Shown: positions 4,213-32,700 of the stretch, in pieces
Numbering within the stretch: the first letter of the stretch is position 1
Layout of the letters: the number at the start of each line of letters is the position of its first letter
Assembly (NCBI GenBank): GCA_043809245.1
Contig: JAZDDZ010000009.1
Span: 1 to 44,618 of the forward strand
Source: Candidatus Iainarchaeum sp.
GTDB taxonomy: Archaea > Iainarchaeota > Iainarchaeia > Iainarchaeales > JAZDDZ01
Direction of reading: 5' to 3'
Length of the DNA stretch: 44,618 nucleotides
Translations under genes and position numbers: made by a program
Notes under the pieces: generated by a model
Database searches by the model: none
The model's input: only the letters and a program-made list of their open reading frames with translations
What the model was told of the DNA's origin: nothing

Positions 4213-7173
4213 ATGCGCAGACTCCTGCTTTCACTTGCCCTGCTGTTGCTGTTTGCACAGATTGCCTTAGCCGAAGAGCTGATAACGTATGCGGGAGGCA
4301 TTGACACAATCGCGCAGATAGATGGGGGAAACTATTACGCATCCAGATATAACGCGCCGCCGCTTGGCTCGACTAAAACGGAAATAAAAAAAACAACAGT
4401 GAAAGGCGTCCACGAATGGACAAGATGGTATGCCCCTGATCCCGCGGCCGTGGACATATACATGACTGGAATCCTCTACCTGTGGGCGTCGTCGATGAGC
4501 ATTTCAGGCGATTCAGCGCAGTACAGGGCAAGCATTTATGATTTCAATCCCTCAACAGGCTCAAGCACGCTGATTGCACAAAGCCAATGGAAAAGCATGG
4601 CGAATGGAAGCAATGAAACAACAATTCCGTTTGCAGCCGCATACAGGCTTCTCGCCGGGCGAGTAATAAAAATGGTCATGGACTACAATGCTTCAAATGG
4701 CGGCGGGGAAGTAAAGCTGACAGTTGACGAAACGCAAAGCGGCGCGCACCTTGGATGGGAGTTGTCAAACGGCAAAAGCTATGCGTTAAGCAATGTCGTT
4801 TCAACTGCAGCCGCATACATGCCAATTTGCTTCAGCGCAGTGCAGTGCTCAATTAATGCAAACTGCGACGACGGAAGCGCGGCAACACAGGATTTATGTG
4901 AAAACGCGGGAAGCTGCAATGCAAGCTGTTCGCACGCCCCTGTGCAGGGGGGAACTGTTGCATGCAGCTCGAATGCGGAATGCAACGACAATAACGCAGG
5001 AACAACAGATTCATGCAATAACCCCGGAACAGAATCATCTTATTGCTCTCACACGCCAATAGTTAACCACTTCAGTGACCAGAACAGCGGGCAGACCCCT
5101 GCTGGAAATGACGCATGCGTTATTGTGTGCAGGTCGGACAGCGACTGCAACGACAAAAACCCAATAACCACAGACTCCTGCACCGGCGCAGGAACATGCA
5201 GTTCAGCCTGCTCAAACCAGGCCTGCACAATTGCATGCAGCGCAAACAGCGACTGCGATGACAGCAATCCATTGACATCAGATGTTTGCTCGGGTTCGGG
5301 AAAATGCGATGCTTCTTGCTCGCACAGCAGCTGCACGCCTGCGTGCTCGGCTAACGCGGATTGCGATGACGGAAACCCCGCAACAAAAGACGTTTGCGCT
5401 GGGGCTGGAAGATGCAGTGCAATATGCAGCCATCTTGAAAAATGCGGAAACGGAATCATTGACCCTGGTGAAACGGAATGCAATTGCCCGGATGACGTGC
5501 AAAAAACCTGCGGGGGAAATGCGCCCTCCAAATGCCAGGAGTATGCCTGCATTGGAAACAACTGCCAGATTGTTCCAAAACTCGGGTGCTGTGGAAACAA
5601 TATCTGCGAGCAAAGCGAGGACTATGGAAGCTGCCCTGCTGACTGCGAGCCGAAAAAAATTACAGTTGATGTTTCAGACATTGACGGAAGAACCTATTAC
5701 CTCAGGGGCGAAACAGCGCGAATCAAGGCAGTTGTAACCGCAGACGGCGTGCCAATAAACAGTGCGTCAGTTAAAATAAGCGGTTCATTCGGCGAAAAAA
5801 CTTTTTTCAACGACGGAACGCATAATGACGCCAGGGAATACGACAACATTTATACCGCTTTCATTCCCATTGGAAAAGAACAGGCTGAGGGGACGATTGT
5901 TGCGGCAGTAGAAGCGGTTGTCGGCAGGAGAAAAGGATATGCCGCAAAAACAATTGCAGTGAAGCCTGCGCTTGACCTGCAGCTTTCAACCGACAAGGAA
6001 AATTACAATCTGGGGGATGAAATAATGATAACTGGCGTGCTCAGGCGCAGAAACAATGCGTTGCAGCTCCCGATTGACTTCAACATTGTGCAGGAAAGGA
6101 AAACCGTGCTTTCAAAGGAAATTGTTCCGGAAGCCGACGGCTCATTCCGCATAACATACCACACAAGCCTTTTGGACAGGCAGGGGAAGTGGGCAGTCAA
6201 TGCATTTGCAATCGACGAAAACGGCAACTATGCCGCAATAAGGAAAGACCTTAATTTTTCCTCGCCGGAAATAAAAAGCTTTCTTTCGGTTGAAGTGCAG
6301 AACGCAAAAGAGGTTTACGAAAAGAACAGCGACCTGAACCTCATAGTGCTGGTGAAGCGCGCTGACGGAAGCCTTGCAGACGGAGCGGATGTGGAAATTC
6401 TTTTTCCGGGGCTGCTTCCAATCAAGCTTTCCCCGCTTGGAACCGGGCTTTACGCCTTGAACGCAAAGGTGCCGATTAATGCCCCTGCGGGAAAACAGGA
6501 AATAGGTTTCAGTGCGATGAAGCTTGACTCCGGTGTTTTATCAGGGGGGAATGCATCGGTTGAAATAGAGATAAAGGCAATTGAATTCAAAACAGAATTC
6601 CTTGAGCCATCAAGCCCCATATTCCAGGCGGGAGAGGAAATGCCCATAAGGGTGCGCTTGACTTATCCGAATGGCGAGCCGGCAAGCAGGCTTGACATCA
6701 ATGCAACTGTAAACGGAAAAACAGTGGTGCTTACCGCTGTGGCGCAGGGAATCTATGCTGGGAAATATATTGTAGAGGAAGGCGACACTGGAAACGTTAA
6801 GATAAGCATCAGCGCGGCTGATGCGGGAAACAATTTTTCAAGCAAGGAAACAGAGATTGAGGTGTCAGGCGTATCTGTTCTTTTTTACCTGAGGAAATAT
6901 CCCTTAAGCATAGTGCTATTAGTTATCGCGGTTGTAATAGGCGCATTCGGCACCCAGCGGCTGTTAAAGGCAAGGGGAAACGCGAAGGGGCTGAGGAAAA
7001 GGGAGGCTGAACTGATACAGCTTGTCAAGGAAGTGCAGCTGCAGTACTTCAAAGAGGCCTCGCTTGACAAAAAAAGCTATGACAGGCTAATGAACCAGTA
7101 TGAAACAGAATTGTCAGAGACAAGGAAAAAGGCTGCGGCGCTTGAAAGCAAACTGAAGCAAAAAAAAGGCTGA
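4213..7173 (+). CDS. Large single-pass surface protein A (986 aa): signal peptide, N-terminal beta-rich domain, Cys-rich repeats, Ig/MG2-like domains, TM helix, SHOCT-like tail
   Basis: Signal peptide MRRLLLSLALLLLFAQIALA. Five C..N.DC(D/N)D.N..T.D.C...G.C...C repeats and CGN-type repeats. FNDGTHNDAREYDNIYTA (choice-of-anchor-X-like) and LSTDKENYNLGD (MG2-like). TM helix, then QLQYFKEASLDKKSY. Confidence 0.85.
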   Translation: MRRLLLSLALLLLFAQIALAEELITYAGGIDTIAQIDGGNYYASRYNAPPLGSTKTEIKKTTVKGVHEWTRWYAPDPAAVDIYMTGILYLWASSMSISGDSAQYRASIYDFNPSTGSSTLIAQSQWKSMANGSNETTIPFAAAYRLLAGRVIKMVMDYNASNGGGEVKLTVDETQSGAHLGWELSNGKSYALSNVVSTAAAYMPICFSAVQCSINANCDDGSAATQDLCENAGSCNASCSHAPVQGGTVACSSNAECNDNNAGTTDSCNNPGTESSYCSHTPIVNHFSDQNSGQTPAGNDACVIVCRSDSDCNDKNPITTDSCTGAGTCSSACSNQACTIACSANSDCDDSNPLTSDVCSGSGKCDASCSHSSCTPACSANADCDDGNPATKDVCAGAGRCSAICSHLEKCGNGIIDPGETECNCPDDVQKTCGGNAPSKCQEYACIGNNCQIVPKLGCCGNNICEQSEDYGSCPADCEPKKITVDVSDIDGRTYYLRGETARIKAVVTADGVPINSASVKISGSFGEKTFFNDGTHNDAREYDNIYTAFIPIGKEQAEGTIVAAVEAVVGRRKGYAAKTIAVKPALDLQLSTDKENYNLGDEIMITGVLRRRNNALQLPIDFNIVQERKTVLSKEIVPEADGSFRITYHTSLLDRQGKWAVNAFAIDENGNYAAIRKDLNFSSPEIKSFLSVEVQNAKEVYEKNSDLNLIVLVKRADGSLADGADVEILFPGLLPIKLSPLGTGLYALNAKVPINAPAGKQEIGFSAMKLDSGVLSGGNASVEIEIKAIEFKTEFLEPSSPIFQAGEEMPIRVRLTYPNGEPASRLDINATVNGKTVVLTAVAQGIYAGKYIVEEGDTGNVKISISAADAGNNFSSKETEIEVSGVSVLFYLRKYPLSIVLLVIAVVIGAFGTQRLLKARGNAKGLRKREAELIQLVKEVQLQYFKEASLDKKSYDRLMNQYETELSETRKKAAALESKLKQKKG
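4828..5650 (+). repeat. Cys-rich protein repeat array (Dictyostelium CTDC/Myxococcus Cys-rich-like); bounds approximate
   Basis: Examples: CSANSDCDDSNPLTSDVCSGSGKCDASC, CSANADCDDGNPATKDVCAGAGRCSAIC and CGNNICEQSEDYGSCPADC. Confidence 0.8.
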
Positions 7174-7178
7174 AAAAA

Positions 7179-9767
7179 ATGAACAGGCGGCTTCTTTTAT
7201 TTTTCGCTTTGATTGCGCTTATTTCATTCGCGTGCGCCGCGGAAAACGTTTTCTGGCTGAGGGGAAACGACTTAAGCGCAATGCATGAAGGCGGCAGTTA
7301 TTACTTCATGGCGAGTTCTTTTCCCACAAGCACTTCGCACAAAACAGAAATAGTTAAGCAGAACAGCCCTGAACCGATTGAAATAGCGAGATGGTATTCA
7401 ATCAGCTTCTCACAGAGGCTGCTTGCAACAGGAAAAATCGAGGCATGGTTTTCAGGCCTAATTGCGGAAAATGGCTCCGCAGAATACCGCTGGACGCTTT
7501 ACGATTTTCAGACGGATAAAAGCACAAAGATAGTGCAAAGCGAATGGAGCCATGTTCCGTTTGGCGGAGAGGCAAAAAATGCTGCAGAATTGGGAGGCCT
7601 GTATGCGATTGAAAAAGGGCATAAGCTGAAACTGGTGCTTGAGGCAAAAGGAACCGCGGGAGGTAGGACAAGGCTTTCGCTTGACGAAGGAGAACTCAAC
7701 GCATCCGTCGCATTCAAATCCCTTTTCGGAGAAACATACAGTGTTTCAAATGTAAAGAATTCTGCGGCACTTGCGCTGAATCTATGCATAAGCATTGCCT
7801 GCGGAAATGATTCTGACTGCGATGACGGAAACCCCTTGAGCGCGGACATCTGCGTTAATGCAGGAACATGCAGTGCCGCGTGCTCAAACGAGGAATGCAA
7901 AACAGGCTGCAAGGCGGATTTCGAGTGCGCAGACGGAAACCCCTTCACCACTGACAAGTGCATTGGAAAGGGAAGCTGCGATGCAAAATGCGCAAACAGC
8001 GAATGCACTCCGAAATGCTCATCGGACAATGAATGCAAAGACGGCCTTAACGCAACGGTTGACGAATGCATTTATCCGGGAACATGCATTGCATACTGCA
8101 AAAGCACGGTCTGCGAACCCGCGTGCTCAGATGACGGGGAATGTGAAAATGGAATGGTGTGCGCGGACGCGGGAAAATGCAGCGCTAAATGCATTCAGCA
8201 AATTTCATGCGGCAACGAAAAATGCGAAAAATATGAAAATCCGGAAAATTGTTCGGCTGACTGCAAAACAGGGCAAGGCATATCAGTCGACGTGCTTGAG
8301 CCGAAAAAAGGCGAATTCTTTCCAAGGGGGGAAAAAGTGCTTGTAAAGGCAAGGGTTGAATCGGCTTTCAGCGATGTGAGAAACGCAATTGTTACCGCAA
8401 TAGGCCCTTTCGATGAACTCGCGCTTTCCAATGACGGAAGCAACGGCGATGAAAAGCCTGTTGACAATGTTTTCACGGGATATGCAACTATTTCAAAAAA
8501 CGCAGCGGACGGCGCAAACGAGATGACAATACAGGCAAAGGCGGGAAACGCCGGCGGCTTCAGCAAAACAAGCATTATTGTTGCGCCAATAATTGACCTT
8601 GAGCTGAACACAGGCAAAAATGATTACATTATCGGCGAGGAAATAATAGCAAGCGGCAGCGCGTCAATCAGGGGAAACCCTGCAAAAGCCACTGTCAACA
8701 TCTCAATAAACGCAGGGGGAAAGGAAATCACGCAGCAGTCAGTGGAAACAGACGGCTCAGGCGCTTTCAGCTTCAGGTTCCGCTCCCTTGCACTTCACCC
8801 CCTTGGAAACTGGCTGATTTCCGCAAGCGCGGGCGATGCAAGCGGGAACTCGGGAAAAGCGGAAAAAGAAATAGAGGTAAGCGCACCCAACTTTACAAAC
8901 CCGCTGCAAATACAGTTCACAAATGAATTAAATGCAGAATTCAAGAGAGGGGAAGAGCTCGGCTTCTACATAGCACTCAGGAATCTTGACAAAAGCCCAT
9001 TCAGCGGCGCATTTGTATACATCACGCTTCCATTCGGCTCCACCTTGAAAGCCGAAGAGGAAAACAGCGGCATTTACACTGCAAATGCAAGGATTCCCAT
9101 GGATGCGCCGGTTGGAAAGGGCAATGGCAGGATAACCGCTTTGAGGATTGACGGAGAAACTGTTTACGGCGCTGAAAAAAATTTTGAACTGGAAATACTT
9201 GACGCAGAAATACTGCTGAAAATGATTGAATTCAATGAAGGCACGGAAAAAATGGCAGGCGAAACCATTCCCCTGAAATTCAGCGCAGTTTATTCCTCTA
9301 ACGGTGAAACGCTTGAAATGCCGGCAATCGCAAAAATAGGCGGCCACCAGGTGGAACTTGAAAAGCAGGGGCCTGTTTTTTTAATCAACTACTTTGTGGA
9401 GGAGCGCGATGTCGGAAAAAATGCGCTGCTGCTCACAATTGAGGACTCCTTTGGAAACAATGCGGAGAAAATGCTCGGCGTGAAAGTCAGCGGGGTCTCG
9501 GCGCAGTACTTCTTCCTCAAATACATTAACCTTATCTTTATTGGCGCAGGGCTTATTGGGCTTTGCGCATTGGCAATAATCATGCGCAAAAGGATTGGGA
9601 AAGAAAAAAACAGCGGCACGCGGCTGACGGAAAAGCAGATAATGGAGGAAATAAAAGCCGTACAGACAAGGTATTTTAAGCGCGGCGCTGTCTCAAAGGA
9701 AAAATATTACGCGGAAATGAACAGGCTTGAGTCAGAGCTGGCTGAGCTCAAGGGGGAAAGCAAGTGA
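7179..9767 (+). CDS. Large single-pass surface protein B (862 aa), paralog of A
   Basis: Same order of modules. The N-domain shares GG.YY, KTEI.K, RWY and YR...YDF with A. 3-4 Cys repeats, then LSNDGSNGDEKPVDNVFTG, a TM helix and the tail VQTRYFKRGAVSKEKY. Confidence 0.85.
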   Translation: MNRRLLLFFALIALISFACAAENVFWLRGNDLSAMHEGGSYYFMASSFPTSTSHKTEIVKQNSPEPIEIARWYSISFSQRLLATGKIEAWFSGLIAENGSAEYRWTLYDFQTDKSTKIVQSEWSHVPFGGEAKNAAELGGLYAIEKGHKLKLVLEAKGTAGGRTRLSLDEGELNASVAFKSLFGETYSVSNVKNSAALALNLCISIACGNDSDCDDGNPLSADICVNAGTCSAACSNEECKTGCKADFECADGNPFTTDKCIGKGSCDAKCANSECTPKCSSDNECKDGLNATVDECIYPGTCIAYCKSTVCEPACSDDGECENGMVCADAGKCSAKCIQQISCGNEKCEKYENPENCSADCKTGQGISVDVLEPKKGEFFPRGEKVLVKARVESAFSDVRNAIVTAIGPFDELALSNDGSNGDEKPVDNVFTGYATISKNAADGANEMTIQAKAGNAGGFSKTSIIVAPIIDLELNTGKNDYIIGEEIIASGSASIRGNPAKATVNISINAGGKEITQQSVETDGSGAFSFRFRSLALHPLGNWLISASAGDASGNSGKAEKEIEVSAPNFTNPLQIQFTNELNAEFKRGEELGFYIALRNLDKSPFSGAFVYITLPFGSTLKAEEENSGIYTANARIPMDAPVGKGNGRITALRIDGETVYGAEKNFELEILDAEILLKMIEFNEGTEKMAGETIPLKFSAVYSSNGETLEMPAIAKIGGHQVELEKQGPVFLINYFVEERDVGKNALLLTIEDSFGNNAEKMLGVKVSGVSAQYFFLKYINLIFIGAGLIGLCALAIIMRKRIGKEKNSGTRLTEKQIMEEIKAVQTRYFKRGAVSKEKYYAEMNRLESELAELKGESK

Positions 9768-11032
9768 AAAAAAATTTCAAGTTCGCGCTTTTTGCGCTGG
9801 TTTTCTGCGCGCTGATGGCTTTTGCTGGCGCTGAAAACATTTCAATTGCGGCAAATGCGAGCATGGAAAAAGGGCAGATGCTTGAAATGCACGGCTCATG
9901 CGCAAGGCTGGCGTTTGTCGCGCTTTCAGCCACTTCAAGTGACGGCAAAAAAATATTTGAGAACGAAATCCAGTGCACGAGTGCAGGGGATTTCTCGTAC
10001 ATTTATGGCACGAGCTTTCTTGACCCTGCGGGGGAATGGGTTTTGGCCGCGGAAAGCGCGGGGGAAAAAGCCGAAACAAGCATAAGTGTTTTGGAAAAGC
10101 CAGAAAGCCAGTTTTATTTGATAACTTTCCTGAGCCCCAGCGCAACGGAATACAAGAGGACAGATGACATAATCATCAGCGTGAAGGTGACTGATTCGGG
10201 AAAGGCTGTTGATGACGCCAATGTAATTGCTTGGGGCGTTGAAGGAAAAAGGATTCAGCTTTACGGAAACGGGAATGGCAACTATTCCACAACCTACGGG
10301 CTTCCGTTTGACGCTGAACTCGGTGAATGGGTGCTGACCGTGGCTGCCGATAAAAAAAGCGAGTCACTTTATGCGGGCGGGGAGAACAGCATTTCATTGG
10401 CTGTTGCAAAGGCGAGGATAATAATTGATGCCTTGGAGCCAAGCCTTGAGACATACCAGTTAAGCGAACCGATTCCGCTGAAAGCAAGTGCGGTGTACTC
10501 AAGCGGGAAAAAATTGGCTGGCGCAGGGGAAAAGCCGAAAATCACTGCAAGAATCGGGGAAAACGAGGTTTTGCTGCAGCAGGTTGACGAGAATTTTTTC
10601 GCGGGATCCTATGAACCAAGGGGAGAGGACTTCGGTGAAATTGCGATTGTGTTCAGCGCAACGGACGAGGCGGGAAACACAGGGGAAACCCTGAAAACCG
10701 TTATCACGACAAACTATTGGGGCTGGTTCCTCAAAAACAATTTGCTTTTCTTTGTCGTTGCAATTGTTCTGGCTGTTTTGCTCGCGAGGTTTTTTTATTC
10801 AGGGGCAAAATACTCGATTATGGGCAGCAGGCTGAAAAACGAGAAAACACAGACAGAAGAGCTTATTAAAAGCCTGCAGCGCGAGTACTTTGAGAAAGGG
10901 GTTATGCCCGCGGGAACCTACAAGGAAAACCTTTCAAAGCTGAAAGCAAAGTTAACGGAATTGGATGCAAGGATAGCGGACATGGAGGCATTGGAGGAAA
11001 AAAAGAAGAAAAAGAAAAAAGGCCTTGTGTGA
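9764..11032 (+). CDS. Single-pass surface protein C (422 aa), short paralog with only the Ig/MG2-like domains
   Basis: Signal peptide; SFLDPAGEWVL matches SLLDRQGKWAV (A) and LALHPLGNWLI (B). TM helix, tail LQREYFEKGVMPAGTY and a poly-Lys end. Start overlaps the stop of B (GTGA). Confidence 0.85.
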   Translation: MKKNFKFALFALVFCALMAFAGAENISIAANASMEKGQMLEMHGSCARLAFVALSATSSDGKKIFENEIQCTSAGDFSYIYGTSFLDPAGEWVLAAESAGEKAETSISVLEKPESQFYLITFLSPSATEYKRTDDIIISVKVTDSGKAVDDANVIAWGVEGKRIQLYGNGNGNYSTTYGLPFDAELGEWVLTVAADKKSESLYAGGENSISLAVAKARIIIDALEPSLETYQLSEPIPLKASAVYSSGKKLAGAGEKPKITARIGENEVLLQQVDENFFAGSYEPRGEDFGEIAIVFSATDEAGNTGETLKTVITTNYWGWFLKNNLLFFVVAIVLAVLLARFFYSGAKYSIMGSRLKNEKTQTEELIKSLQREYFEKGVMPAGTYKENLSKLKAKLTELDARIADMEALEEKKKKKKKGLV

Positions 11033-11080: not shown

Positions 11081-12319
11081 ATGGCGGATGAAGAGAAAAA
11101 AAAGGCACTGGCAGAGGCAACTGAAAGGCTTCTGAAAGACTTGAAGGACGAGGGCGAAGTCCTTTCAAACCTAAAGGACATTGGGGTGGGCGAGGAAGAA
11201 GCCAAAAAAATGATTGATGACGCAAAGAAAAAAGGGATAACCGCTGAAAAAAGCGCGGAACAGGAATGGGGCGGGTTAGGCAAGGGCCTTCCCGCAAAAA
11301 AACTGCTTGAAAAAGAGGACATGTTCTGGTCAAAGCCATTGTTCCAGAAAAAAACAAAAGCCCCTGCAATGGATGAAAAAAGCGGCAAAAAAGGGGAAAA
11401 ACACATTTTTGGCGGAATGAAATTTGGGGGCAAAAAAGGGGAAAAGCTTGATGAAGTGCTTCCTGAAAAAAAGGAAAAGGCAAGGCATGAAGCAAAAGGA
11501 ATTAGCAGCAGGAGCAGCGGAGGAGGGGGAGGCGGAGGAGGAATTGAAAGGGAAAGGGAAAAGGCGCGCTTCCGCGAGGTAATGCCTGTAAGGGTGAGCG
11601 ATTTTGACAGGCTGATTGAAAAAGGCGGGTTAAAGAGAGGCGACACAGTGCTTTTAAGCGGCGGCTGCGGCACTGGAAAAACTACTTTTGCAATGCAGTC
11701 AATGTATAACGCGGTTCTTGCAGGGGAAAAAGCCGTTTATTTAACGCTTGAGGAAACCGCGGAAAAAATAAAGGAAAACATGTACGAGAATTTTGGCTGG
11801 GACCTTTACACCTTGGAAGAGGAAAACAAGATTGCAATAATCAAAATCGACCCCCTAAGCATTGCAAGGGCGGTTGAAGCGGCTTTGACAAAGGAAAGAG
11901 GCGGCCTTTACATAGAGCTTGAGGAATTCGATTTGCCTTTCCAGTTCAATTTGCCGTTCAAGCCGGACAGGGTTACAGTTGATTCCTTGAGCGCGTTAAG
12001 CATTGCGTTCATGGAGAACGAGCAGGGATACAGGCAATACCTCAGGCATCTTTTTGAAACGCTTGAAAAATACAATTCAGTGAACATTGTTTTAGGGGAA
12101 ACAGAACAGCAGCCGAATGTTTACAGCAGGAGCGGAGTCGAAGAATTCTTGGCGGACGGAGTCATAGTGCTTTACAACATCAAAATACACAACTTGAGGG
12201 AAAAGGCTTTGGAGATATTAAAGCTCAGGAGCTCAAACCACGAAAAGCGAATTGTTCCATACAAAATATGCGACAGGGGAATAGAGATTTACATAAACCA
12301 AAGTTTGTTCAGGGAATGA
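11081..12319 (+). CDS. KaiC/RAD55-like ATPase 1 with N-terminal helical module and Lys/Gly-rich linker
   Basis: GGLKRGDTVLLSGGCGTGKT, YLTLEE, VTVDSLS, GVEEFLADGVI and LEILKLRSSNH. Confidence 0.9.
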   Translation: MADEEKKKALAEATERLLKDLKDEGEVLSNLKDIGVGEEEAKKMIDDAKKKGITAEKSAEQEWGGLGKGLPAKKLLEKEDMFWSKPLFQKKTKAPAMDEKSGKKGEKHIFGGMKFGGKKGEKLDEVLPEKKEKARHEAKGISSRSSGGGGGGGGIEREREKARFREVMPVRVSDFDRLIEKGGLKRGDTVLLSGGCGTGKTTFAMQSMYNAVLAGEKAVYLTLEETAEKIKENMYENFGWDLYTLEEENKIAIIKIDPLSIARAVEAALTKERGGLYIELEEFDLPFQFNLPFKPDRVTVDSLSALSIAFMENEQGYRQYLRHLFETLEKYNSVNIVLGETEQQPNVYSRSGVEEFLADGVIVLYNIKIHNLREKALEILKLRSSNHEKRIVPYKICDRGIEIYINQSLFRE

Positions 12320-12351: not shown

Positions 12352-12735
12352 TTAATCAATTTCTTCCATTTCGGCTTCTAACTGTGTGACCTTGGTGATT
12401 TTGTCCTTGACCTTGTCAATCTGTTCCTTTAAGCGGTTTCTTTTAAGGCTTAATTCCTCTTCTTTTGCGACAAGCTTTGTGACCTTGTTTTTCAGTTCAA
12501 CCTGCTGGTCCTGTGTGGAAGAAATGGTTCCTGCAACTGACTGCAGGCCGCGTTCCGTTGAAATTTTTTCCAAGCGCAGGCGCTCCAGTTCGGCTTCAAT
12601 GTCCTTCAGTGCCTCTGAAAGAAGCGAGTGGGTTTTAACCTGCTTTGCCACTGCAGGGGACTTTTTCTTATTTTTTTTAGCGGGTTTTTTTGCCGCTTTT
12701 CTGGGCTTTGAAGCCTTTTTCTTTTTCTTTGCCAA
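12352..12735 (-). CDS. Coiled-coil protein with Lys/Ala/Pro-rich basic N-terminus
   Basis: MAKKKKKASKPRKAAKKPAKK followed by ~90 aa of heptad pattern; TTG start. Confidence 0.75.
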   Translation of the reverse strand: MAKKKKKASKPRKAAKKPAKKNKKKSPAVAKQVKTHSLLSEALKDIEAELERLRLEKISTERGLQSVAGTISSTQDQQVELKNKVTKLVAKEEELSLKRNRLKEQIDKVKDKITKVTQLEAEMEEID

Positions 12736-12821
12736 TCAAAACACCGAAACCAAGAATAAATGTGCTAACATATAGAGATTGTTATCGTTTAAAAACTTTA
12801 CCATTCGGTTTTCCTTACTTT

Positions 12822-14648: not shown

Positions 14649-15116
14649 TTACGGGCAGCTTCCAATCAAGTCCACTGTTCCGCCTTCCGTCTTTCCGCTG
14701 ATGTTTGGCGTGCTGTAAGTGATGTTGAAGTCCAGAGAATAGGACTGTCCGCTTGTGCACACAGGCTGTGAACCAATGAATGGAATCGCTTTCTCTTCGC
14801 CCGCTGAATAAGTCGTGCTTGTGACTGTTGACGCATACTGTGTTGTGCCGTTATGGAAGTGCATGCCAGTAACAGTTATCTTGCTGGATGACTGGTTCCT
14901 CAGGACAATGGTTGCATCGCCTGCAGTGCCAGTTATCTGCCAGTCGGTTACAGCCAACGGAGACTGTGAAGCCCAGTAAGCTTTGCTCTGGCTTTCCGTA
15001 ACTCCAGTTCCCATTCCAGGAAGGAATCCCAGGACGCCGACAACAACCAATGCAATCACTATCACCACTGCCAAAATTATCAGGTATTCAGTTGTACCTT
15101 GACCTTTAAAATTCAT
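14649..15116 (-). CDS. Type IV pilin, probable major pilin (class III signal peptide)
   Basis: MNFKG/QGTTEYLIILAVVIVIALVVVGVL (Q+1, E+5). Has its own promoter and a strong SD. Confidence 0.88.
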   Translation of the reverse strand: MNFKGQGTTEYLIILAVVIVIALVVVGVLGFLPGMGTGVTESQSKAYWASQSPLAVTDWQITGTAGDATIVLRNQSSSKITVTGMHFHNGTTQYASTVTSTTYSAGEEKAIPFIGSQPVCTSGQSYSLDFNITYSTPNISGKTEGGTVDLIGSCP

Positions 15117-15121
15117 TCAAA

Positions 15122-15195: not shown

Positions 15196-15210
15196 CCTCA
15201 GTTTTCCGAG

Positions 15211-17114: not shown

Positions 17115-17115
17115 G

Positions 17116-21208: not shown

Positions 21209-21212
21209 CTTC

Positions 21213-24200: not shown

Positions 24201-24377
24201 TTTCGCTGCATTAGCCAAATCGTTTGCGCTGGTTTTCGCGGTTTCAAGCTGTTTTTGGATGTCAATAGTTGTTGCCTGCTGGAATCCAAAGGAAAGGAAA
24301 AACAACAGGATTACTAGCGATACGGCGAGGATTATCATTAGCTCTACTGAGCTCTGCGCATTGCCTGGCTTTTTCAT
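21213..24377 (-). CDS. Giant pilin-adhesin (1054 aa): class III signal, Ig-like domains, DUF2341-like domain, five FG-GAP/DxDxDG repeats
   Basis: MKKPGNA/QSSVELMIILAV; WWNSQWNYRLPV...YHVYYGN; five repeats such as PAFADLDNDGDKDLVVGENTG...WRNTGT. Confidence 0.88.
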   Translation of the reverse strand: MKKPGNAQSSVELMIILAVSLVILLFFLSFGFQQATTIDIQKQLETAKTSANDLANAAKDVYAQGFGARKQVLVTIPNGTDESKTGIENSTIVFNVAGTDLFADPGVQLSGSFPTTPGGHLVWVESRGSYVSIGSEEAVLDTYSVSLSMLSSSSAGKTITITNYSPGEAIATILPVWSNPDVSLSLSSANFSIPQGSALTFDTNFSSGASAVGAYTGSVQVNVHLSSYDQNIVVPLSVEVSQQGGTGTTGALVVLPSAWTATILRGSSSVKTFNVCNDSTSTMDSITFTPSSGDAGDFAQPISPIASIAAGECATADINLFVPPLQATGPYTGTINVSDADGNSDSIALTITVVQATTVFRWAINSCNWGDCNSTSSVTGAPDISFNSSNGNSLGGYAFDVSGLSGNIVALNILWSHEVSTPSTSQSSIFETTSADFNEGTESFSQTTLTHIDNGEVALSAKSGWWNSQWNYRLPVLLTENRGVSRSNQQTNLTLSFDASHIDSCANEIRVITDANVEIPVRILSDNGSNPVSPSCKIQFGVTISANNSATYHVYYGNSSAANPGYSIPNYSLTWLDSGANALPTNDIGSNAVPLFSDFLDADSDFDLVVGDNAGIFNNVWRNTGTPSSPSWTADNAQLPNTDVGSNSTPAFADLDNDGDKDLVVGENTGNINNGWRNTGTAAVPAWQAYSWNLPATDFGTDSSPSFVDIDNDNNFDLAIGLSDGTIAFLRNTGTPSAPSWSQVSGVMPSQDFGSNAAPTFADLDEDGDFDLIVGESTGRLYLVRNIGSASSPSWETVSLSNYLAQSDGATIDVGTRAAPFLVDLDADSYRDLVIGAGNGRLQTNSSNGRFYYNSHLNISVGAEESPYYFGGTYTSNALDFGSAVTILSLDFNSTLNSQSLSLSFRTSADGITWTDWSEPRITTPQEVNDENQFIQYIAYFSGNGAGTAYLNDVNITVQSIGGMLDDSVSLTYGLSSFDQSTALTYDYLNTPANKMSTDPGAIESVDVFSLRPGGGAWQWSDFSNLKIGGIYNRVGSANGSWRLDAVGVEISYG

Positions 24378-24431: not shown

Positions 24432-24683
24432 TTAATGGTGGTTGTGAGGGTTCAGCTCAAAGACATCAGCAATGTAAACCGCTTTTCTTGCGCGGATATA
24501 GACAAGGAGCGAGGTTGCAGCTGCTGCAAAGCCGAAAAGGTACTGGAGCAATGCATTTGCAAGAAGGCCCTGGCTTTGGGAAATTACTCCCTGAAAGATT
24601 AGGAACAATGTGAAAGCCATCAGGAAAATGAGCACGCCTGAAAAGAAAACAATGTTGAAGATAAGCTTTGTAATAAGTTTCAT
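24432..24683 (-). CDS. Small two-TM membrane protein
   Basis: Two hydrophobic helices and a His-rich end (PHNHH); lies between KaiC-like ATPase 2 and the pilin operon. Confidence 0.7.
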   Translation of the reverse strand: MKLITKLIFNIVFFSGVLIFLMAFTLFLIFQGVISQSQGLLANALLQYLFGFAAAATSLLVYIRARKAVYIADVFELNPHNHH

Positions 24684-24719: not shown

Positions 24720-25784
24720 TTAAAACACTTCCACTTCAGGGTAGACTACTATTCCGTCCTTTTCGAATGTGAGCGCGCAGACCTTGTTTGTGTGCTTTGT
24801 TCCGCGCATCTTCAAAATTTCAAGCGAATGCACCCTAACATCCTTGTCCTCTTTCTTGGAATAGTAAAGGGAAATTATCGCATCAGTCAAAAAGCCTTCG
24901 GCGCCTTCCTTTACTTCCGCAATCTTTGGCGGCATTTCAGAAATGATCAAGGAAGTTGGGCCCCATTTTTTGAGCAGCTCAAAGAATTCCAAAATGTTTT
25001 CGCGCTTCTGGTATTCGTCGTGGAATAAAAGCGAGTAAGCCGTAATGGAATCAATTGCAAGGCGCTTTGCATTCATTGCCTTAATCGCGTCCTTTATCTG
25101 GCCGCCGCCTTCCTGCATAAGCTTGTTCACCTGGTGCGGCTTGAATTCAAGTATTTGAAACAGGCCTTCGCGTTCAAGTTCCTCAAAGTTCCAGCCAAAC
25201 TCCTTGTTGTGCTTATACAAGGATTGGCGGGATTCCTCGAATGAAATCAGGATGCCGGGTTCCTTGAATTTTTTTGCGCCAAAGTAAAGGAATTGGAGGG
25301 CAAAGGTTGTTTTGCCTGTTCCCGCGCCGCCGGTTATTAGAACAGTGCTGCCTTTTTCAAAGCCGCCTTCAATTAGTTCATCCAGGCCAATTATTCCGCT
25401 TGGAACCCTTTCAATGGCTGTTTCATCGCCTTTTCCTGCTGAAGGCCTAGGGGACTGCCTTAATGTGCTCAGGTTTTCCTCTAGCTCTTTTACCTTGCGC
25501 TCGATTTCCTCAACCGAAGGTTTTTGGGGTTCAAGTTTCTGCGGCTCTGGCTTCACTGGCTCCGGTTTCAACAGTTCTTGTTTCTGTGGTTCCGGCTGCC
25601 TTTCAATTGCTTCCTGTGTTTTACCTGAATCCTGTGCAGGCTGCTTTTGGCCCAGTTCACCCATAAGCTTTTCAAAGTCAGGGGCCTGCTTTTTTTCAGG
25701 CCCAGCCTTTGCATCGGGCGCAGAAGAGCCTGTTCCAACAAGCTTGGATAAATCAATTTTGGCTTTTTTCCTTGCTTCCGCCAT
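24720..25784 (-). CDS. KaiC/RAD55-like ATPase 2 with disordered Pro/Gln/Lys-rich N-terminus and short coiled coil
   Basis: ERVPSGIIGLDELIEGG, GGAGTGKT, ISFEE, LAIDSIT and LEILKMRGTKH. Confidence 0.92.
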   Translation of the reverse strand: MAEARKKAKIDLSKLVGTGSSAPDAKAGPEKKQAPDFEKLMGELGQKQPAQDSGKTQEAIERQPEPQKQELLKPEPVKPEPQKLEPQKPSVEEIERKVKELEENLSTLRQSPRPSAGKGDETAIERVPSGIIGLDELIEGGFEKGSTVLITGGAGTGKTTFALQFLYFGAKKFKEPGILISFEESRQSLYKHNKEFGWNFEELEREGLFQILEFKPHQVNKLMQEGGGQIKDAIKAMNAKRLAIDSITAYSLLFHDEYQKRENILEFFELLKKWGPTSLIISEMPPKIAEVKEGAEGFLTDAIISLYYSKKEDKDVRVHSLEILKMRGTKHTNKVCALTFEKDGIVVYPEVEVF

Positions 25785-25928: not shown

Positions 25929-26549
25929 ATGCCCGGCAAGGAAAAGGAATTAGCGGAACTTGAAGCGCTTCTTGCGGAAATGAAGGAGATGAACGTACAG
26001 CTGAAAAACAAAATCGGCTCGCTGGAGGACGACTTCATCGGGCTGATGATAATAAACGAATTGAAGCTAGCGGAAGCGGGAACAGAGCTTTTGAGGATTT
26101 TAAGGCACGATGAAAATATGCCCGGCATCTATATCACGGCAAACAAGCCTTATGCCACAATGGTAAAGCACCTTGAAAAACAAAAGGTTGACATTGAAGG
26201 GATATTCTTCATTGACTGCGTGAGCCATGAGGGAAAAAACAGCGCAATAAAAAATGATTCATGCGTAGTGGTTGACGGCCTCAAGGAATTGACGCAACTG
26301 GAAATAGCGTTCGAGAAGGCAATAAAGGGCGCAAAAAACAACGAAATTTTCATAGTGCTTGACTCTATTTCAACGCTTATGATATACCATGACGCGAAAA
26401 TAATTGAAAGGTTCATCCATTCCACTATTACAAAGATAAGGGAAAAAGAAGGAATGCGGGCCTTTTTCATCGCGGTTGACTCGCATGAAAACGCGCCGCT
26501 GATTACAAGCATAGCGCAGTTCTGCGACAAAGTAGTGAAAATAGATTAA
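25929..26549 (+). CDS. P-loop-less KaiC/RecA-fold protein
   Basis: GIYITANKPY, FFIDCVS, IVLDSISTLMIY, IERFIH and AQFCDKVVKID; no Walker A. Start taken as ATG 25929. Confidence 0.8.
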   Translation: MPGKEKELAELEALLAEMKEMNVQLKNKIGSLEDDFIGLMIINELKLAEAGTELLRILRHDENMPGIYITANKPYATMVKHLEKQKVDIEGIFFIDCVSHEGKNSAIKNDSCVVVDGLKELTQLEIAFEKAIKGAKNNEIFIVLDSISTLMIYHDAKIIERFIHSTITKIREKEGMRAFFIAVDSHENAPLITSIAQFCDKVVKID

Positions 26550-26557: not shown

Positions 26558-27280
26558 GTGTTCAAAATGCCTGCAAAAAAAGAATTCACAGTGGAAAGGA
26601 CAAAATCAGGCATTCCTGGCCTGGACGAATTAATGGGAGGGGGCGTGCCAAAAGGAAACCTTGTGGTTTTAAGCGGAGACCCTGGAAGCGGGAAAACCGT
26701 TTTCTGCTGGCAATTCCTCTATGAAGGCGCGAAAACATTCGCAGAAAACGGAGTGTATGTTAGCTTAGAGGAAACAGAGGAATCAATACTTGAAGGCGCA
26801 AAGGAATTCGGCTGGGAATTAAAGGAATTAATTGACAAGGGAAAGCTGAAAATAATCACAATAGAGCTTTACGATTTTGAAAGATTGAAGAACACGATTG
26901 AGGACACGATAAGGAGCATTGGCGCGAAAAGGGTTGTCGTAGACCCTGGCGTAATTTTCAGGCTTTTCTTTGAAAGGGAACTGGATGCAAGGAAAAGAAT
27001 TGTGTCGCTTGCAAAGCTCTTGAAGGCAATGAACTGCACTTCAATAATCACAAACGAAATAGCCTTGGACAAGATGAGCTCGCTTTACGGATTGGAGGAA
27101 TATGTTGCGGACGGCGTCATACTAATGTACCACACAAAAATAAAGAACAAGTTCATAAGAAGCATCGGCATACTCAAGATGAGGAACACTGAAATATCGG
27201 AACAGCTGAGGCCCATAAAGATAACAAGCGGCGGCCTAAAGGTTTTGAGCAAATCAGAGCTGTTTGAAAACGTGGAATAG
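26558..27280 (+). CDS. KaiC/RAD55-like ATPase 3 (single domain)
   Basis: ERTKSGIPGLDELMGGG, GDPGSGKT, YVSLEE, GLEEYVADGVI and ILKMRNT. Confidence 0.93.
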   Translation: MFKMPAKKEFTVERTKSGIPGLDELMGGGVPKGNLVVLSGDPGSGKTVFCWQFLYEGAKTFAENGVYVSLEETEESILEGAKEFGWELKELIDKGKLKIITIELYDFERLKNTIEDTIRSIGAKRVVVDPGVIFRLFFERELDARKRIVSLAKLLKAMNCTSIITNEIALDKMSSLYGLEEYVADGVILMYHTKIKNKFIRSIGILKMRNTEISEQLRPIKITSGGLKVLSKSELFENVE

Positions 27281-27288: not shown

Positions 27289-27972
27289 ATGCCCTCTGAA
27301 AAAAAAATTAAAAGCAAGGAAACAGATTCAAGCCCAGGCGACTGGGAAAACATAAGGCTTCTCACGGAAAAAGACTTGGAGGACCTTTTAAGCGACAAAA
27401 ACAAGATGGATTTGGAACTTGAAAGGAAAATGTCCGAGCTGAAAAAAGGGCAGACCGTGCTTGTAATAGTGCAGCCTGAGAATTACGCTGAATCAAGGAT
27501 GGGGCTCATAAGGCGTTTTGCTGGAAAAAAGAAAATGGACGGGGTTTTCGTAACAGTGAACAAGCCTTACAGGAAGATAACGGAAGAAGCGGAAAATGAA
27601 AAAATTGACATCACAAAAATGCGGTTCATTGACCTGATAAGCAAAACCACGGACAGCGTGGAGGAAGGCGATGGCGGCACGGGGTCAAAGGTGGACTTTC
27701 TTGAAAGCACAGGGGATTTGACTGAATTGGTAATGGCGTGCGAGAAAAGGATTGGCGAAATCAGCGGGGACAAGTTTTTCGTGCTGGACTCTGTTTCCGC
27801 GCTGCTTGTGTACAATGAATCGGATGCTGTTGAAAAATTCATTCACACAATGATAAACAAGATAAGCAGGGAAAAGGCACAGGGAATACTGCTGATAATC
27901 GAAAGCAGGGAATTCGAGGGCGCAATCCAGACCCTGAGCCAGTTCTGCGACAAAGTAGTGAAAATACTCTGA
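27289..27972 (+). CDS. P-loop-less KaiC/RecA-fold protein
   Basis: GVFVTVNKPY, FIDLIS, FVLDSVSALLVY, VEKFIH and SQFCDKVVKIL. Confidence 0.8.
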   Translation: MPSEKKIKSKETDSSPGDWENIRLLTEKDLEDLLSDKNKMDLELERKMSELKKGQTVLVIVQPENYAESRMGLIRRFAGKKKMDGVFVTVNKPYRKITEEAENEKIDITKMRFIDLISKTTDSVEEGDGGTGSKVDFLESTGDLTELVMACEKRIGEISGDKFFVLDSVSALLVYNESDAVEKFIHTMINKISREKAQGILLIIESREFEGAIQTLSQFCDKVVKIL

Positions 27973-27980: not shown

Positions 27981-29306
27981 CTATTGGCTTAGGGAAATTT
28001 TTTCGCCGAGAACAGAGGAAACGCTTGCCTCGACTTTTTCCCGCAGGGAATCAAGCTGCTTTTCCTTTTCCAAGACAATTGACTTCATTTTATCCGTGTC
28101 GCCTGAAAGCGAGGCGAGCTTTTTTTCCGCGGAAGAAACCTTTGACTCAAGTGATTCCTTTTCCGAAAGAACCTGGTTTTCGGAAAGCGCTGCCTCAACT
28201 TCGTTCAATGACTTGTCAAGCTCGTTCAGCTTCCAGAAAAAAGAGCCGAAAAAATCAAAGGACTGGAGCTCGTTCAATGCTGCAAGGCGCTTTTCAATTT
28301 CATCTGGCTTGAGAGAAACCGCGCCGTCCTCAATCGCCTTCCCCAAAGAAAGCAGGACCTTTTTGAATGAATCCGCGCGCGGGTCCTGGCGCAATGCAAG
28401 GAAAGGGTCGGAAAGAAAAAGCTTCAATGAATGCGCTTCAGGCCCATCCAAGGGAAATGCCTTTGATTCCGCGAGCTGCTGGAAGCGCCTCAAAGGCTTG
28501 TCAATGCGCGAGAGAAGGTCAAAGATTTTCTGCCTTAACCGCTCTTTTTCGGAAATGATTTCGCCTTTCTCGGAAAGAAGCCTGTCCAGCGAAGAAGCCT
28601 TGCCTGACGACGCAAGTTCTCCAAGCTCTTCGGAAAGCTTTTGCTTCTGCAATGAAAGGGATTTCATTTCACGTTCAATTGATGAAAGGGATTTCCTTGA
28701 CTCGTTAAGCGAGGAAATCTGCGTGCCAAGCCGCAAGGCATCAGTTCGGACCGCTTCGGTTTTTCCAATTTCGCTTTCAACCACAATGGTTTGGAGCGAC
28801 GCAAAGGTTTTGTCAAGCTCCTTGAAAAGCCTTCCCAAGCCGCGCATCTCATCCTTCAGGACAAGGCCTGAAATCGCAATGCTTTTGCTGAACTGCGCCA
28901 GCTCCTTCTGCAGGAAAGGCCTTGAATTAACGCAGTAATCGCGCAATAACTCAAAATCTGTTTTCGAAGGGGGCTCAAGCTTCAGGAGAACAGATTGGAA
29001 TGTTTGCACGAATTTGCGCTGCGAAGTGGAAACAATTTTCCGGAAACGCTTATGGACATCAGCCCCTTCCTCCACGTTCTTTGCGCCCATTTCACCCAGC
29101 TGCGCGCGCACCTCATTCAACAAATGCTTTACTTCCGCGAAACGGCTGAAAACATCGCGCTCGAATTGCTCTTTCCCCGAGCCGATCCTTTTGTCTATGA
29201 GCTCAAGCAAGTCATCGGAAGAAATTGCCCTGGAAGCCTTCGGCGCTTTGGCTGAGCCGGAAAATGAAAAAAGCTTCTTCAGCCAGTTAAGGAAAGAGAA
29301 AGCCAT
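27981..29306 (-). CDS. Uncharacterised long coiled-coil protein
   Basis: Extended heptad repeats and no ATPase motifs. Start placed at ATG 29306 (MAFSFLNWLKKLF), which removes the overlap with the divergent gene. Confidence 0.75.
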   Translation of the reverse strand: MAFSFLNWLKKLFSFSGSAKAPKASRAISSDDLLELIDKRIGSGKEQFERDVFSRFAEVKHLLNEVRAQLGEMGAKNVEEGADVHKRFRKIVSTSQRKFVQTFQSVLLKLEPPSKTDFELLRDYCVNSRPFLQKELAQFSKSIAISGLVLKDEMRGLGRLFKELDKTFASLQTIVVESEIGKTEAVRTDALRLGTQISSLNESRKSLSSIEREMKSLSLQKQKLSEELGELASSGKASSLDRLLSEKGEIISEKERLRQKIFDLLSRIDKPLRRFQQLAESKAFPLDGPEAHSLKLFLSDPFLALRQDPRADSFKKVLLSLGKAIEDGAVSLKPDEIEKRLAALNELQSFDFFGSFFWKLNELDKSLNEVEAALSENQVLSEKESLESKVSSAEKKLASLSGDTDKMKSIVLEKEKQLDSLREKVEASVSSVLGEKISLSQ

Positions 29307-29319
29307 ACAGAAAATCCGG

Positions 29320-29345
29320 GGGAAAGCCTTTTTAAGCATTTTAAC
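29320..29345. promoter_or_regulatory. Compact bidirectional promoter region
   Basis: GGAAAGCCTTTTTAAG resembles the pilin promoter GGAAAGCCTTTTAAAT. Divergent starts at 29306 and 29360/29369. Confidence 0.5.
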
Positions 29346-29359
29346 AAAAAAAGGATACA

Positions 29360-29941
29360 GTGTTTGCAGTGAAAAAAGTTTTAGGCTACTGGATTGCGCT
29401 GGTTTTGGTGCTGGTGGTTGCGTTCGCCTTGCTTGTTTCAATGTACAGGTCAAGCGCTGTCCCGATGAGCGGGCTCATAACAATGCAGGACGAGCAAATC
29501 CTGAACAACGCATTCTCCGGAACAAAACTGAAAGCCGACTACGTGAAAACGATCAACGACAGCCTGTCAACAGTGCCCGGTTTTGTGATAAGCATTTTCG
29601 GAAACGAAAGAATTAACCTTATGGTGAAAATGGATGACGGAAGCGGGAGAAAATTCGGGATAATTTCAAGCAACGGAAAGGTTGCGGAAGCATACAGTGC
29701 GTATTTAACAAAGCCGACAATGGAGGCAACCGCAAAGGAAAGCACAATACAAAGGATAAGGAAATCCAATGCCCCGGTGAGTGAGTTCACGAAAGCGCTG
29801 AACAGCGGGGAAATACAGTACAAGGGCATTGGGCTGGGAAACCAAGTCAAGGAAGCAGGGGTAAAGGCAGGCTCAAGCATTTATGGAATAGCTGATTCTT
29901 TTTTGGGCTTCTTTAACGGAATATTCGGCAGAAAAAAATAA
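29360..29941 (+). CDS. Membrane-anchored uncharacterised archaeal protein (possible SCP2-like fold)
   Basis: N-terminal TM helix, then IFGNERINL...PTMEATAKESTIQRI...ALNSGEIQYKGIG. Confidence 0.65.
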   Translation: MFAVKKVLGYWIALVLVLVVAFALLVSMYRSSAVPMSGLITMQDEQILNNAFSGTKLKADYVKTINDSLSTVPGFVISIFGNERINLMVKMDDGSGRKFGIISSNGKVAEAYSAYLTKPTMEATAKESTIQRIRKSNAPVSEFTKALNSGEIQYKGIGLGNQVKEAGVKAGSSIYGIADSFLGFFNGIFGRKK

Positions 29942-32040: not shown

Positions 32041-32070
32041 GAAGAACCATCTTGCGATTAAGGCGGCTGG

Positions 32071-32700
32071 CTAATCAATCCTTATTACCTTGTCGCAGAA
32101 CTGCGCAAGCTTTTGCAACGAGACCTTATCCTCGGGGCTTTCAACCGCAATGAATAATCCTTTTGCGCCGGGAGTGGAACTGATGCGCGAGGCAAGAACA
32201 TGCACAAAGCGCTCAACTGTTTTCGGCTTGTGGTAAATGGAGAGAGTGGAAATTGAATCCAAAACAATGAAAATTTTTTTGCTGGAACTCAGGGACATTG
32301 CCTTGTCAAGCGCAATTGTGAGCGAGGAAAGGTCAGAGAGTGAATCAACGAATAAAACGTTTTTTTCCGCTGCCGATGCCCCTTTTCCCATTTTCCTTGA
32401 AACACAGTCAATGAAGACTATTCCGCCAGTGGGAATGCCATTAGAGGAAAGGCGTTTCATCAGGGAATCAAAAGGCCTGTTGCCTGTGATGTAAATTCCA
32501 GACAAGCCCTTTTTTTCAATCAAAACGCGCAAAAGCGCTGTGTTTATTTCCGAAAAACGGTCGGGATTAATGACTAAAAGGGAAACGAATTCATCTCCCA
32601 ACGCATCGAGCTTTTGCTCCAAATCAGCGCTTAACCTCTTCACAGGGTCGACAAAAGCGGAAAGCGCGTCAATTTTTGAGTTACGGGAAGTATCAGCCAT
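32071..32700 (-). CDS. P-loop-less KaiC/RecA-fold protein
   Basis: GIYITGNRPF, VFIDCVS, IVLDSISTLSIY, VERFVH and AQFCDKVIRID. Start taken as ATG 32700 (MADTSRN). Confidence 0.8.
   Translation of the reverse strand: MADTSRNSKIDALSAFVDPVKRLSADLEQKLDALGDEFVSLLVINPDRFSEINTALLRVLIEKKGLSGIYITGNRPFDSLMKRLSSNGIPTGGIVFIDCVSRKMGKGASAAEKNVLFVDSLSDLSSLTIALDKAMSLSSSKKIFIVLDSISTLSIYHKPKTVERFVHVLASRISSTPGAKGLFIAVESPEDKVSLQKLAQFCDKVIRID

Follow-up and report, generated by a model that had tools for sequence, protein, structure and literature searches.

KaiC-Centred Gene Modules Around Paired Surface Proteins and a Type IV Pilus in a Candidatus Iainarchaeum Genome

The Locus and Its Surface Proteins

The window analysed here—44,618 nucleotides (nt) of a Candidatus Iainarchaeum genome, positions 1 to 44,618 of contig JAZDDZ010000009.1 (assembly GCA_043809245.1)—carries three genes for surface proteins, a type IV pilus locus and seven genes for proteins with a KaiC fold, all between positions 4213 and 32700. 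Its proteins were taken from an open reading frame (ORF) listing and assigned by Pfam scans; it makes up 3% of the genome (1.48 Mb, 91.8% complete) and holds three of the eight intact KaiC genes and four of the seven pseudo-KaiC genes found there. An original prediction, drawn from the DNA letters, had joined all of these parts into a single surface-sensing circuit. Comparison with the genes of relatives splits the region into separate conserved modules, not one circuit, and we lean towards reading it as a composite of KaiC-centred modules, in which one KaiC, docked on the tails of the surface proteins, would couple the surface to the cytoplasm and the pilus would be a module of its own.

The three surface genes lie in tight succession on the plus strand: S1 (4213–7173; 986 amino acids), S2 (7179–9767; 862 amino acids), which starts 5 nt past the end of S1, and S3 (9764–11032; 422 amino acids), which overlaps the end of S2 by 4 nt. 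They are followed on the same strand by the gene of a KaiC-like ATPase, KaiC_a (11081–12319; 412 amino acids). That the three are paralogous single-pass surface proteins, as originally proposed, is borne out by tblastn matches between them (E-values of 1.8e-109 and 1.1e-17), and all three begin with a signal peptide and have, towards the C-terminus, a membrane helix and then a tail. The translation of S1, with a weak MG2 match, reads as an N-terminal domain, Cys-rich repeats, Ig/MG-like domains, the membrane helix and a cytoplasmic helical tail with the motif Q-x-x-Y-F; S2, the other long protein, shares this architecture. The short protein S3 was modelled with AlphaFold (predicted local distance difference test, pLDDT, 92) as three beta-sandwich domains followed by a membrane helix and a tail folded into a helical hairpin, which lies on the basic side of the membrane helix and is therefore cytoplasmic. 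Q-x-x-Y-F recurs in 33 of 33 surface-protein tails, long and short, from proteins that are otherwise <30% identical. A permissive regular expression, meant to capture a core common to the tails, matched 1 of the 33 and was discarded, and a protein-database search with an S3 alignment, which returned at least six proteins that are all unnamed or “hypothetical,” is uninformative on distribution.

The Cys-rich repeats of S1 and S2 (4800–5500 and 7780–8200) run to about 30–40 amino acids each, with four Cys and a conserved Asp/Asn, and matched no Pfam family. Repeats of this type occur elsewhere in the genome, on contigs C7 (3986–4408), C54 (38595–39278) and C47 (29512–29871).

In Foldseek searches S3 resembled complement MG-domain arrays, the adhesin SiiE and, at rank 10, the S-layer stalk SlaB of Sulfolobus, with template modelling scores (TM-scores) that are low, about 0.2. 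These folds raise the alternative that the surface proteins build an envelope or S-layer-type scaffold, for which KaiC_a and coiled-coil proteins would serve assembly, anchoring, spacing or turnover, in a mechanical or quality-control role in place of sensing and signalling. We judge this account unlikely. Three beta-sandwich domains on a membrane anchor suit it, as does the pairing of a long with a short protein, which is reminiscent of two-component S-layers; SlaB, too, is a beta-sandwich stalk on a C-terminal membrane anchor with a larger partner, SlaA (Foldseek match 8qox_B). Unlike SlaA/SlaB, however, both partners in the window have their own membrane anchor and a conserved cytoplasmic hairpin tail, the top fold matches are generic Ig/MG arrays, and the SlaB match is one of fold, at a TM-score of about 0.2. 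Moreover, the KaiC-family proteins studied so far are regulators, as far as we are aware and in passages of PMC4858521 and PMC10983859.

The Surface Pair and Its Dedicated KaiC Clade

Across related genomes the homologues of these genes are not scattered, and the linkage on which the original prediction depended is conserved. Conserved linkage shows the core unit to be a co-directional string of paired single-pass envelope proteins followed by a dedicated KaiC_a. Each of its envelope proteins crosses the membrane with one helix, between Ig/MG-like domains outside and a conserved helical hairpin of 60–75 amino acids inside. The KaiC_a clade (43–82% identity) was found in 59 of the 196 genomes of the order, with 91 non-self genes from 58 other genomes and 16 GTDB families. 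Fully 78 of these 91 genes have a surface gene no more than about 3.2 kb away, 12 are cut off by contig ends and one stands apart (i.e., 78 of 79 testable cases); the tally was made partly by hand among the surface matches listed, with 14 unresolved places fetched in addition. When 16 further loci from nine further families (f2, f26, f20, f14, f21, f9, f30, f6 and f12) were anchored on surface-gene pairs, a KaiC_a-type gene stood directly beside the pair in all 16, most of them without psK_L (the long pseudo-KaiC described below) and without the three-helix unit that heads KaiC_a in the window. No pilus ATPase lay within the 20 kb fetched in 14 of the 16.

The association reaches beyond the order. 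In a second phylum (301 sampled genomes of the phylum of a Micrarchaeota-labelled locus) six genomes carry the KaiC_a clade, with seven genes: five beside a long/short pair, one cut by a contig end and one not adjacent (5/6 testable). The tails of these second-phylum pairs match the surface-tail profile with E-values of 1e-11 to 1e-14. Several genomes have multiple copies of the unit (3–4), and the order varies, with the KaiC before or after the pair. These patterns support that part of the original prediction which tied the surface proteins to a KaiC, and they attach them to one dedicated clade.

The same counts bear on the scaffold alternative. A phosphoglucomutase/phosphomannomutase gene stands ahead of the surface genes in many loci, which favours it; nevertheless, a patchy distribution—59 of 196 genomes for the KaiC_a clade and 73 of 196 for surface-protein matches (single-protein query)—would be odd for an essential wall, and the presence of three or four copies in some genomes also argues against it.

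Around the core lies an extended set, seen in 20 loci that were anchored on long psK_L orthologues: phosphoglucomutase, the S genes, psK_L, KaiC_a, a further KaiC (KaiC_c) with the pseudo-KaiC psK2, a coiled-coil protein and a DHH-family protein. KaiC_a adjoins psK_L in 19 of the 20 (the other is cut by a contig end), the S genes adjoin psK_L or KaiC_a in 15 (the other five are likewise cut), and KaiC_c with psK2 comes after KaiC_a in 11 of the 14 loci in which that flank is present. The extended set is contiguous and free of pilus genes in ten relatives' loci (L104–L107, L109, L112–L114, L119 and L120), where gene order is rearranged and adjacency is kept. Synteny ends after the DHH gene in 7/7 loci with at least 3 kb beyond it.

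Two coiled-coil genes belong to this set. A gene on the minus strand (12352–12735) for a coiled-coil protein of 127 amino acids with a Lys-rich N-terminus and a TTG start, here cc127, was absent from the gene list of the original prediction; tblastn finds its orthologues in 15 relatives' loci (40–54% identity, E-values of 6.9e-18 to 6e-33), in most cases with the psK_L match on one side and the KaiC_a match on the other, and no Pfam family matched it. An overlapping plus-strand ORF (12386–12775) has weaker matches than cc127 and is probably no gene. The second, on the minus strand at 27981–29453, encodes a coiled-coil protein of up to 490 amino acids whose true start is probably Met39 or Met50; it matched no Pfam family, and its orthologues likewise follow psK2. 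Several large coiled-coil proteins in one set are a further point for the scaffold.

In one relative's locus (L107; G132:C34, 9063–11951) the match to the DHH gene is split in two, with about 1.4 kb between the parts, which may reflect an insertion such as an intein or mobile element.

KaiC ATPases and Pseudo-KaiCs

Three KaiC-like ATPases are intact, as first proposed: KaiC_a, KaiC_b (24720–25784, minus strand; 354 amino acids) and KaiC_c (26558–27280, plus strand; 240 amino acids, one KaiC domain) match PF06745 with 166, 202 and 204 bits, respectively, against a cut-off of 26.6. In alignment all three retain Walker A (GxGxGKT), the EE pair and the Walker B aspartate, and these are invariant or nearly so across 33 KaiC_a-clade sequences. 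Each protein has one KaiC stretch, not the clock-type CI–CII double domain. KaiC_a opens with a three-helix unit, which a disordered linker rich in Gly and Lys joins to its one KaiC ATPase domain; KaiC_b has a disordered, Pro/Glu/Lys-rich N-terminus of 120 amino acids ahead of its KaiC domain. An N-terminal M-P-F-G-I-K-F start with Phe/Gly patches was considered as a hallmark of KaiC_a and rejected, being present in only some of the 33 sequences.

The three ATPases belong to different clades. In a FastTree tree all 36 KaiCs adjacent to surface genes fall into one KaiC_a clade (support 99), KaiC_c forms a separate clade (16 rows, support 100), and KaiC_b lies on one side of a branch. Each clade has conserved neighbours of its own, which argues against a single circuit of seven KaiC-fold proteins feeding the pilus.

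The four proteins first described as P-loop-less members of the KaiC fold are confirmed as such by matches to DUF7504 (PF24336; 36.9–44.1 bits, cut-off 27) and weaker KaiC matches: psK_L (12822–14546, minus strand; 574 amino acids), psK1 (25929–26549, plus strand), psK2 (27289–27972, plus strand) and the stand-alone psK3 (32071–32700, minus strand). None of the four has the GKT loop, and the C-terminal third of KaiC is missing from each. The AlphaFold model of psK2 (pLDDT 87.7) resembles the folds of KaiC, PH0284, SSO2452 and FlaH, with TM-scores of up to 0.62. In psK_L a three-helix unit and a linker precede the DUF7504 domain, which has no P-loop; behind it come a long coiled coil and a SHOCT-like end. 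psK3 stood as a gene, with its start at 32700 and not at 32868, and fell as a member of the proposed circuit: no relative's locus has a match beyond the DHH gene, and it has no conserved neighbours.

Pseudo-KaiCs also occur elsewhere in the genome. On contig C29 (13850–15187) a gap of 12 nt separates the gene of a KaiC (239 amino acids) from the downstream gene of a DUF7504 protein (201 amino acids), among unrelated neighbours (a RuBisCO large chain and a Hef-like helicase-nuclease); this setting marks KaiC plus pseudo-KaiC as a free-standing unit. On contig C47 (59494–62314, minus strand) an operon encodes a receiver (118 amino acids), a pseudo-KaiC paralogue (180 amino acids; below the Pfam threshold and detected by tblastn) and a HAMP histidine kinase (641 amino acids). 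Two-component systems are thus present in the genome, and one of these is connected with a pseudo-KaiC; the place of the paralogue in this operon fits a signalling role. Within the window, for which the original prediction had noted no two-component or Che genes, no such Pfam domain was found among the proteins scanned.

Shared Helical Modules

Two small modules had been thought to run through these otherwise different proteins and to link all parts of the locus. The N-terminal three-helix unit is indeed common to KaiC_a and psK_L; it is absent from the other KaiCs and from the pilus proteins of the window, and it heads no other KaiC of the genome. Compared as single sequences, the KaiC_a and psK_L units are not significantly similar (phmmer E-value of 0.34). 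Compared as orthologue profiles with hhalign, they align with a probability of 98.8%, an E-value of 1.2e-16 and a score of 76, and the maximum in 100 column shuffles was 13.6. Since psK_L and KaiC_a share the unit, the two proteins probably meet through it.

The unit also heads three further coiled-coil proteins of the genome (C4:11388–13025, C3:38726–39310 and C10:33576–34244), and the one on C10 has a C-terminal membrane helix, i.e., is tail-anchored. For the scaffold alternative, unlikely as we hold it, these three proteins count as a point in favour.

The second module, a SHOCT-like tail supposedly common to the surface proteins and psK_L, survives in reduced form: the S1–S3 tails share one module, the psK_L tail may be SHOCT-like, and the surface tails gave no SHOCT match. 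None of the four tails of the window (S1–S3 and psK_L) matched Pfam SHOCT (PF09851) at E-values up to 10. Among tails of psK_L orthologues, 6 of 10 matched it at E-values up to 4.5e-4, one of them with 27.5 bits against a cut-off of 27, and the SHOCT-like label is therefore limited to psK_L. Q-x-x-Y-F, for its part, is found in 0 of 13 psK_L orthologue tails, and a search with a profile built from the S1–S3 tails missed the psK_L tail at E-values up to 10. Profile comparison suggests a weak relation between the two kinds of tail (hhalign P of 0.012; 1 of 200 shuffles equals the score). No pilus protein of the window has either the three-helix unit or the tail module.

The Pilus Operon and KaiC_b

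A type IV pilus locus flanked by KaiC-fold genes was correctly recognized at 14649–24377, on the minus strand, with two T2SSF genes, a T2SSE ATPase, a pilin and pilin-like genes. The candidate major pilin (14649–15116; 155 amino acids) has a class III signal-like N-terminus and a PF04021 match of 19.8 bits, under the cut-off of 23.7, and its orthologues lie at the end of pilus operons. Upstream of it in the operon are two PilC/TadC-like membrane platform proteins (protein 2 at 15211–16224 and protein 1 at 16224–17114; PF00482, E-values of 9e-16 and 4e-13), the pilus assembly ATPase (17116–18990; 624 amino acids; PF00437, E-value of 1.5e-33) and four small pilin-like genes (19026–19904, 19892–20317, 20314–20814 and 20807–21208) whose order is kept among relatives; the product of 20314–20814 has a weak DUF7287 match. 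A giant pilin-like protein (21213–24377; 1054 amino acids) combines a pilin-type N-terminus with FG-GAP repeats (FG-GAP_3, E-value of 5.8e-12; FG-GAP, 1.7e-7); its N-terminal 350 amino acids are conserved among relatives, and it is a candidate for an adhesive tip. An N-terminal hydrophobic segment can be seen in six proteins of the locus. The last gene before KaiC_b encodes a small membrane protein (24432–24683, minus strand; 83 amino acids, read from translation) with one orthologue among relatives' loci. For prepilin peptidase, two Peptidase_A24 matches lie outside the window, on contigs C23 and C16.

The ATPase begins with a winged helix, and this N-terminal part alone matches HTH_24 with 22.8 bits; its orthologues are 55–65% identical. 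The winged helix (residues 48–98) also matches the C-terminal part of a separate protein of 230 amino acids (BLASTP E-value of 1e-5) whose gene lies right before that of the ATPase in a second pilus locus of this genome; the form there is split and the form in the window is fused.

KaiC_b is the gene that travels with the pilus, in accord with the earlier suggestion that a KaiC is tied to it. Its orthologues (57–82% identity over the domain) adjoin pilus genes in 9 of 10 near relatives, and both here and in those nine it is the first gene of the pilus operon; a pseudo-KaiC stands next to it in seven of the nine. The long-form ATPase has an orthologue in 13 of 40 relatives of the order. A wider set of 80 pilus loci, many labelled Micrarchaeota, includes 63 with the long-form ATPase and 32 with at least 9 kb upstream, 13 of which have a KaiC_b-type gene. 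The linkage fits the published prediction of KaiC genes in or near the operons of several archaeal pilus clades, as regulators, made in the parts of Makarova, Koonin, and Albers (2016; PMC4858521) that treat them.

Does the pilus also belong with the surface proteins? The account that unites seven KaiC-fold proteins, three surface proteins and the pilus in one circuit, with contact relayed via KaiC and pseudo-KaiC oligomers to pilus assembly, now seems improbable, although gene order lends it some support. From KaiC_b through the pilus genes to psK_L and cc127 the minus-strand genes are co-directional with gaps of at most 102 nt, and the equivalent string terminates in KaiC_a in genome G016 and in psK_L in G027 and G172. 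A second pilus locus (within 62000–78726, with a 914-amino-acid LVIVD/VWA protein, an ATPase and two T2SSF genes) lies near the end of contig C7, which stops about 770 bp past it. In seven relatives (G016, G023, G121, G130, G013, G019 and G036) such a locus is succeeded by the small genes that open the window, and from this order C7 very probably abuts the window start, which would put a second pilus locus upstream of the surface genes here as in those seven. KaiC–pilus links as such are already published, as passages of PMC4858521 attest.

Other evidence points away from the circuit. The surface/KaiC set is free of pilus genes in the ten contiguous loci, and 14 of the 16 loci with the pair and its KaiC lack a pilus ATPase within the sequence fetched; the pilus operon lies within the extended set only here and in G016, G027 and G172. 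CoaE and cytidylyltransferase genes, of the coenzyme A (CoA) pathway, intervene between the second pilus locus and the surface genes. The separate KaiC clades, the lack of either helical module in pilus proteins and the unlinked psK3 argue in the same direction.

A Proposed Mechanism and Its Weighing

In the composite reading towards which we lean, the surface pair and KaiC_a would act as a receptor-like device with a separate kinase subunit. A KaiC_a oligomer would dock on the cytoplasmic tails of a heteromer of long and short surface proteins, and its ATP or autophosphorylation state would couple surface events to the cytoplasm. A two-chain complex prediction of KaiC_a residues 161–412 with the S3 tail (residues 346–422) gave scores of 0.35, 0.20 and 0.23, the mark being 0.32, and these speak neither for nor against such docking. 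As partners the unit would have gained, in this lineage, psK_L, cc127, KaiC_c with its own pseudo-KaiC, and the large coiled-coil protein. The pseudo-KaiCs are probably nucleotide-independent partners of the KaiCs, in a KaiB-like role. KaiC_b, by analogy with ArlH acting on ArlI, probably modulates the pilus ATPase. In this genome and a few relatives the pilus operon sits as an insertion within the extended set, so that any cross-talk between surface and pilus would be a lineage-specific addition and not the basis of the system.

Several observations weigh against this reading. One KaiC_a-clade gene in the order (L155) has no surface gene nearby, nor has one in the second phylum (L170). Related genomes are not independent, and the counts given above therefore overstate the number of separate events. 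KaiC_b is absent from 19 of the 32 wider-set pilus loci with enough flank, against 13 that have it; its link to the pilus is thus common, not universal. The pilus string runs directly into psK_L (in the window, G027 and G172) or KaiC_a (G016), and at least seven genomes have a second pilus locus some 3 kb ahead of the surface genes, so that a link to the pilus keeps some plausibility. The resemblance of the modelled S3 fold to the SlaB stalk in Foldseek would fit a structural over a sensory role. Finally, the conserved synteny also takes in housekeeping genes (CoaE, cytidylyltransferase, phosphoglucomutase and DHH), which tells us that gene order can last without a functional link.

Taken further, the equally conserved order of those four genes might suggest that the whole linkage is inherited gene order with no functional coupling. 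This we consider highly improbable, as the adjacency of surface pair and KaiC_a survives duplication, re-ordering and transfer to a second phylum, and synteny breaks directly outside the block.

The KaiC_a-clade gene of L155 (G175:C11:2148–5517), the one in the order without a surface neighbour, heads a run of three KaiC and two pseudo-KaiC genes.

Relation to Known Systems

Parts of this picture are already in print: the association of KaiC with pili, the idea of KaiC hubs, and KaiC domains that have been inactivated. Makarova, Galperin, and Koonin (2017, mBio) put forward archaeal KaiC-like ATPases as signalling hubs and described inactivated KaiC (iKaiC) domains, as cited in passages of PMC5847659 and PMC10983859; the genome studied here resembles the hubs of those passages in its many KaiC paralogues, its P-loop-less domains and its link to a receiver domain. 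In the literature searched, to which Makarova, Galperin, and Koonin 2017 (mBio) and supplements did not belong, no description was found of the surface-pair/KaiC unit, the three-helix unit or DUF7504. The main text of PMC4858521 (its supplementary tables lay outside the search) has 0 occurrences each of DPANN, Diapherotrites and FG-GAP, and the window pilus differs from the pili treated in that text in its winged-helix-fused ATPase and giant FG-GAP pilin.

Three well-studied systems offer partial likenesses. ArlH/FlaH, which binds ArlI and autophosphorylates according to PMC5019145 and bioRxiv 10.1101/2021.03.19.436134, is like KaiC_b a single-domain KaiC-fold ATPase in a filament operon beside a secretion-type ATPase and a platform protein. 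KaiC_b differs in heading a pilus operon, not an archaellum operon, and in its disordered N-terminus; no match to archaellin (PF01917) was found in the genome. KaiC_b was rejected as an ArlH orthologue: a KaiC CI domain leads its matches (E-value of 2e-65), and FlaH is not among the 45 solved-structure matches with E-values up to 1e-5. The cyanobacterial KaiABC clock rests on an ATPase of the same family as the window KaiCs, likewise with Walker A/B and a catalytic EE pair. In contrast to the clock, the window KaiCs are single-domain proteins, KaiB (PF07689) has no match in the genome at its 91.8% completeness, and pseudo-KaiC neighbours stand where the partner would be expected. The likeness to SlaA/SlaB has been given above.

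Seen against these systems, the surface pair with KaiC_a might be a novel archaeal transmembrane signalling device, made of Ig-domain receptors, a hairpin and a KaiC kinase or timer, with pseudo-KaiC adaptors in place of KaiB; the events it would pass on might be contact with a host cell or with a substrate. We put this forward tentatively, as a possibility about which we have more doubt than confidence. If true, it would be the first defined membrane input to the proposed archaeal KaiC network, in DPANN lineages that depend on contact. The inputs of archaeal KaiC hubs are largely obscure. The analysis contributes a defined and widely conserved pairing of surface proteins with one KaiC clade, a P-loop-less partner family and a shared three-helix, docking-type unit; together these provide concrete proteins and short tails for binding work. 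As surface contact is thought to be central to the DPANN lifestyle, the locus is a candidate link between envelope, pili and regulation. The result also warns against reading a whole gene-dense neighbourhood as one machine.

Neighbouring Genes

The phosphoglucomutase gene found by Pfam scan (2693–4174, plus strand) lies directly ahead of S1. Between the end of the coiled-coil gene at 29453 and psK3, the same scans identified the DHH-family protein and, after it, a HAD hydrolase. The remaining genes of the window belong to amino-acid and mevalonate metabolism. Near the presumed junction with the second pilus locus, a minus-strand gene (175–726) encodes a protein with two winged-helix domains and an N-terminal HTH of the HVO_0163 type (E-value of 8.5e-16).

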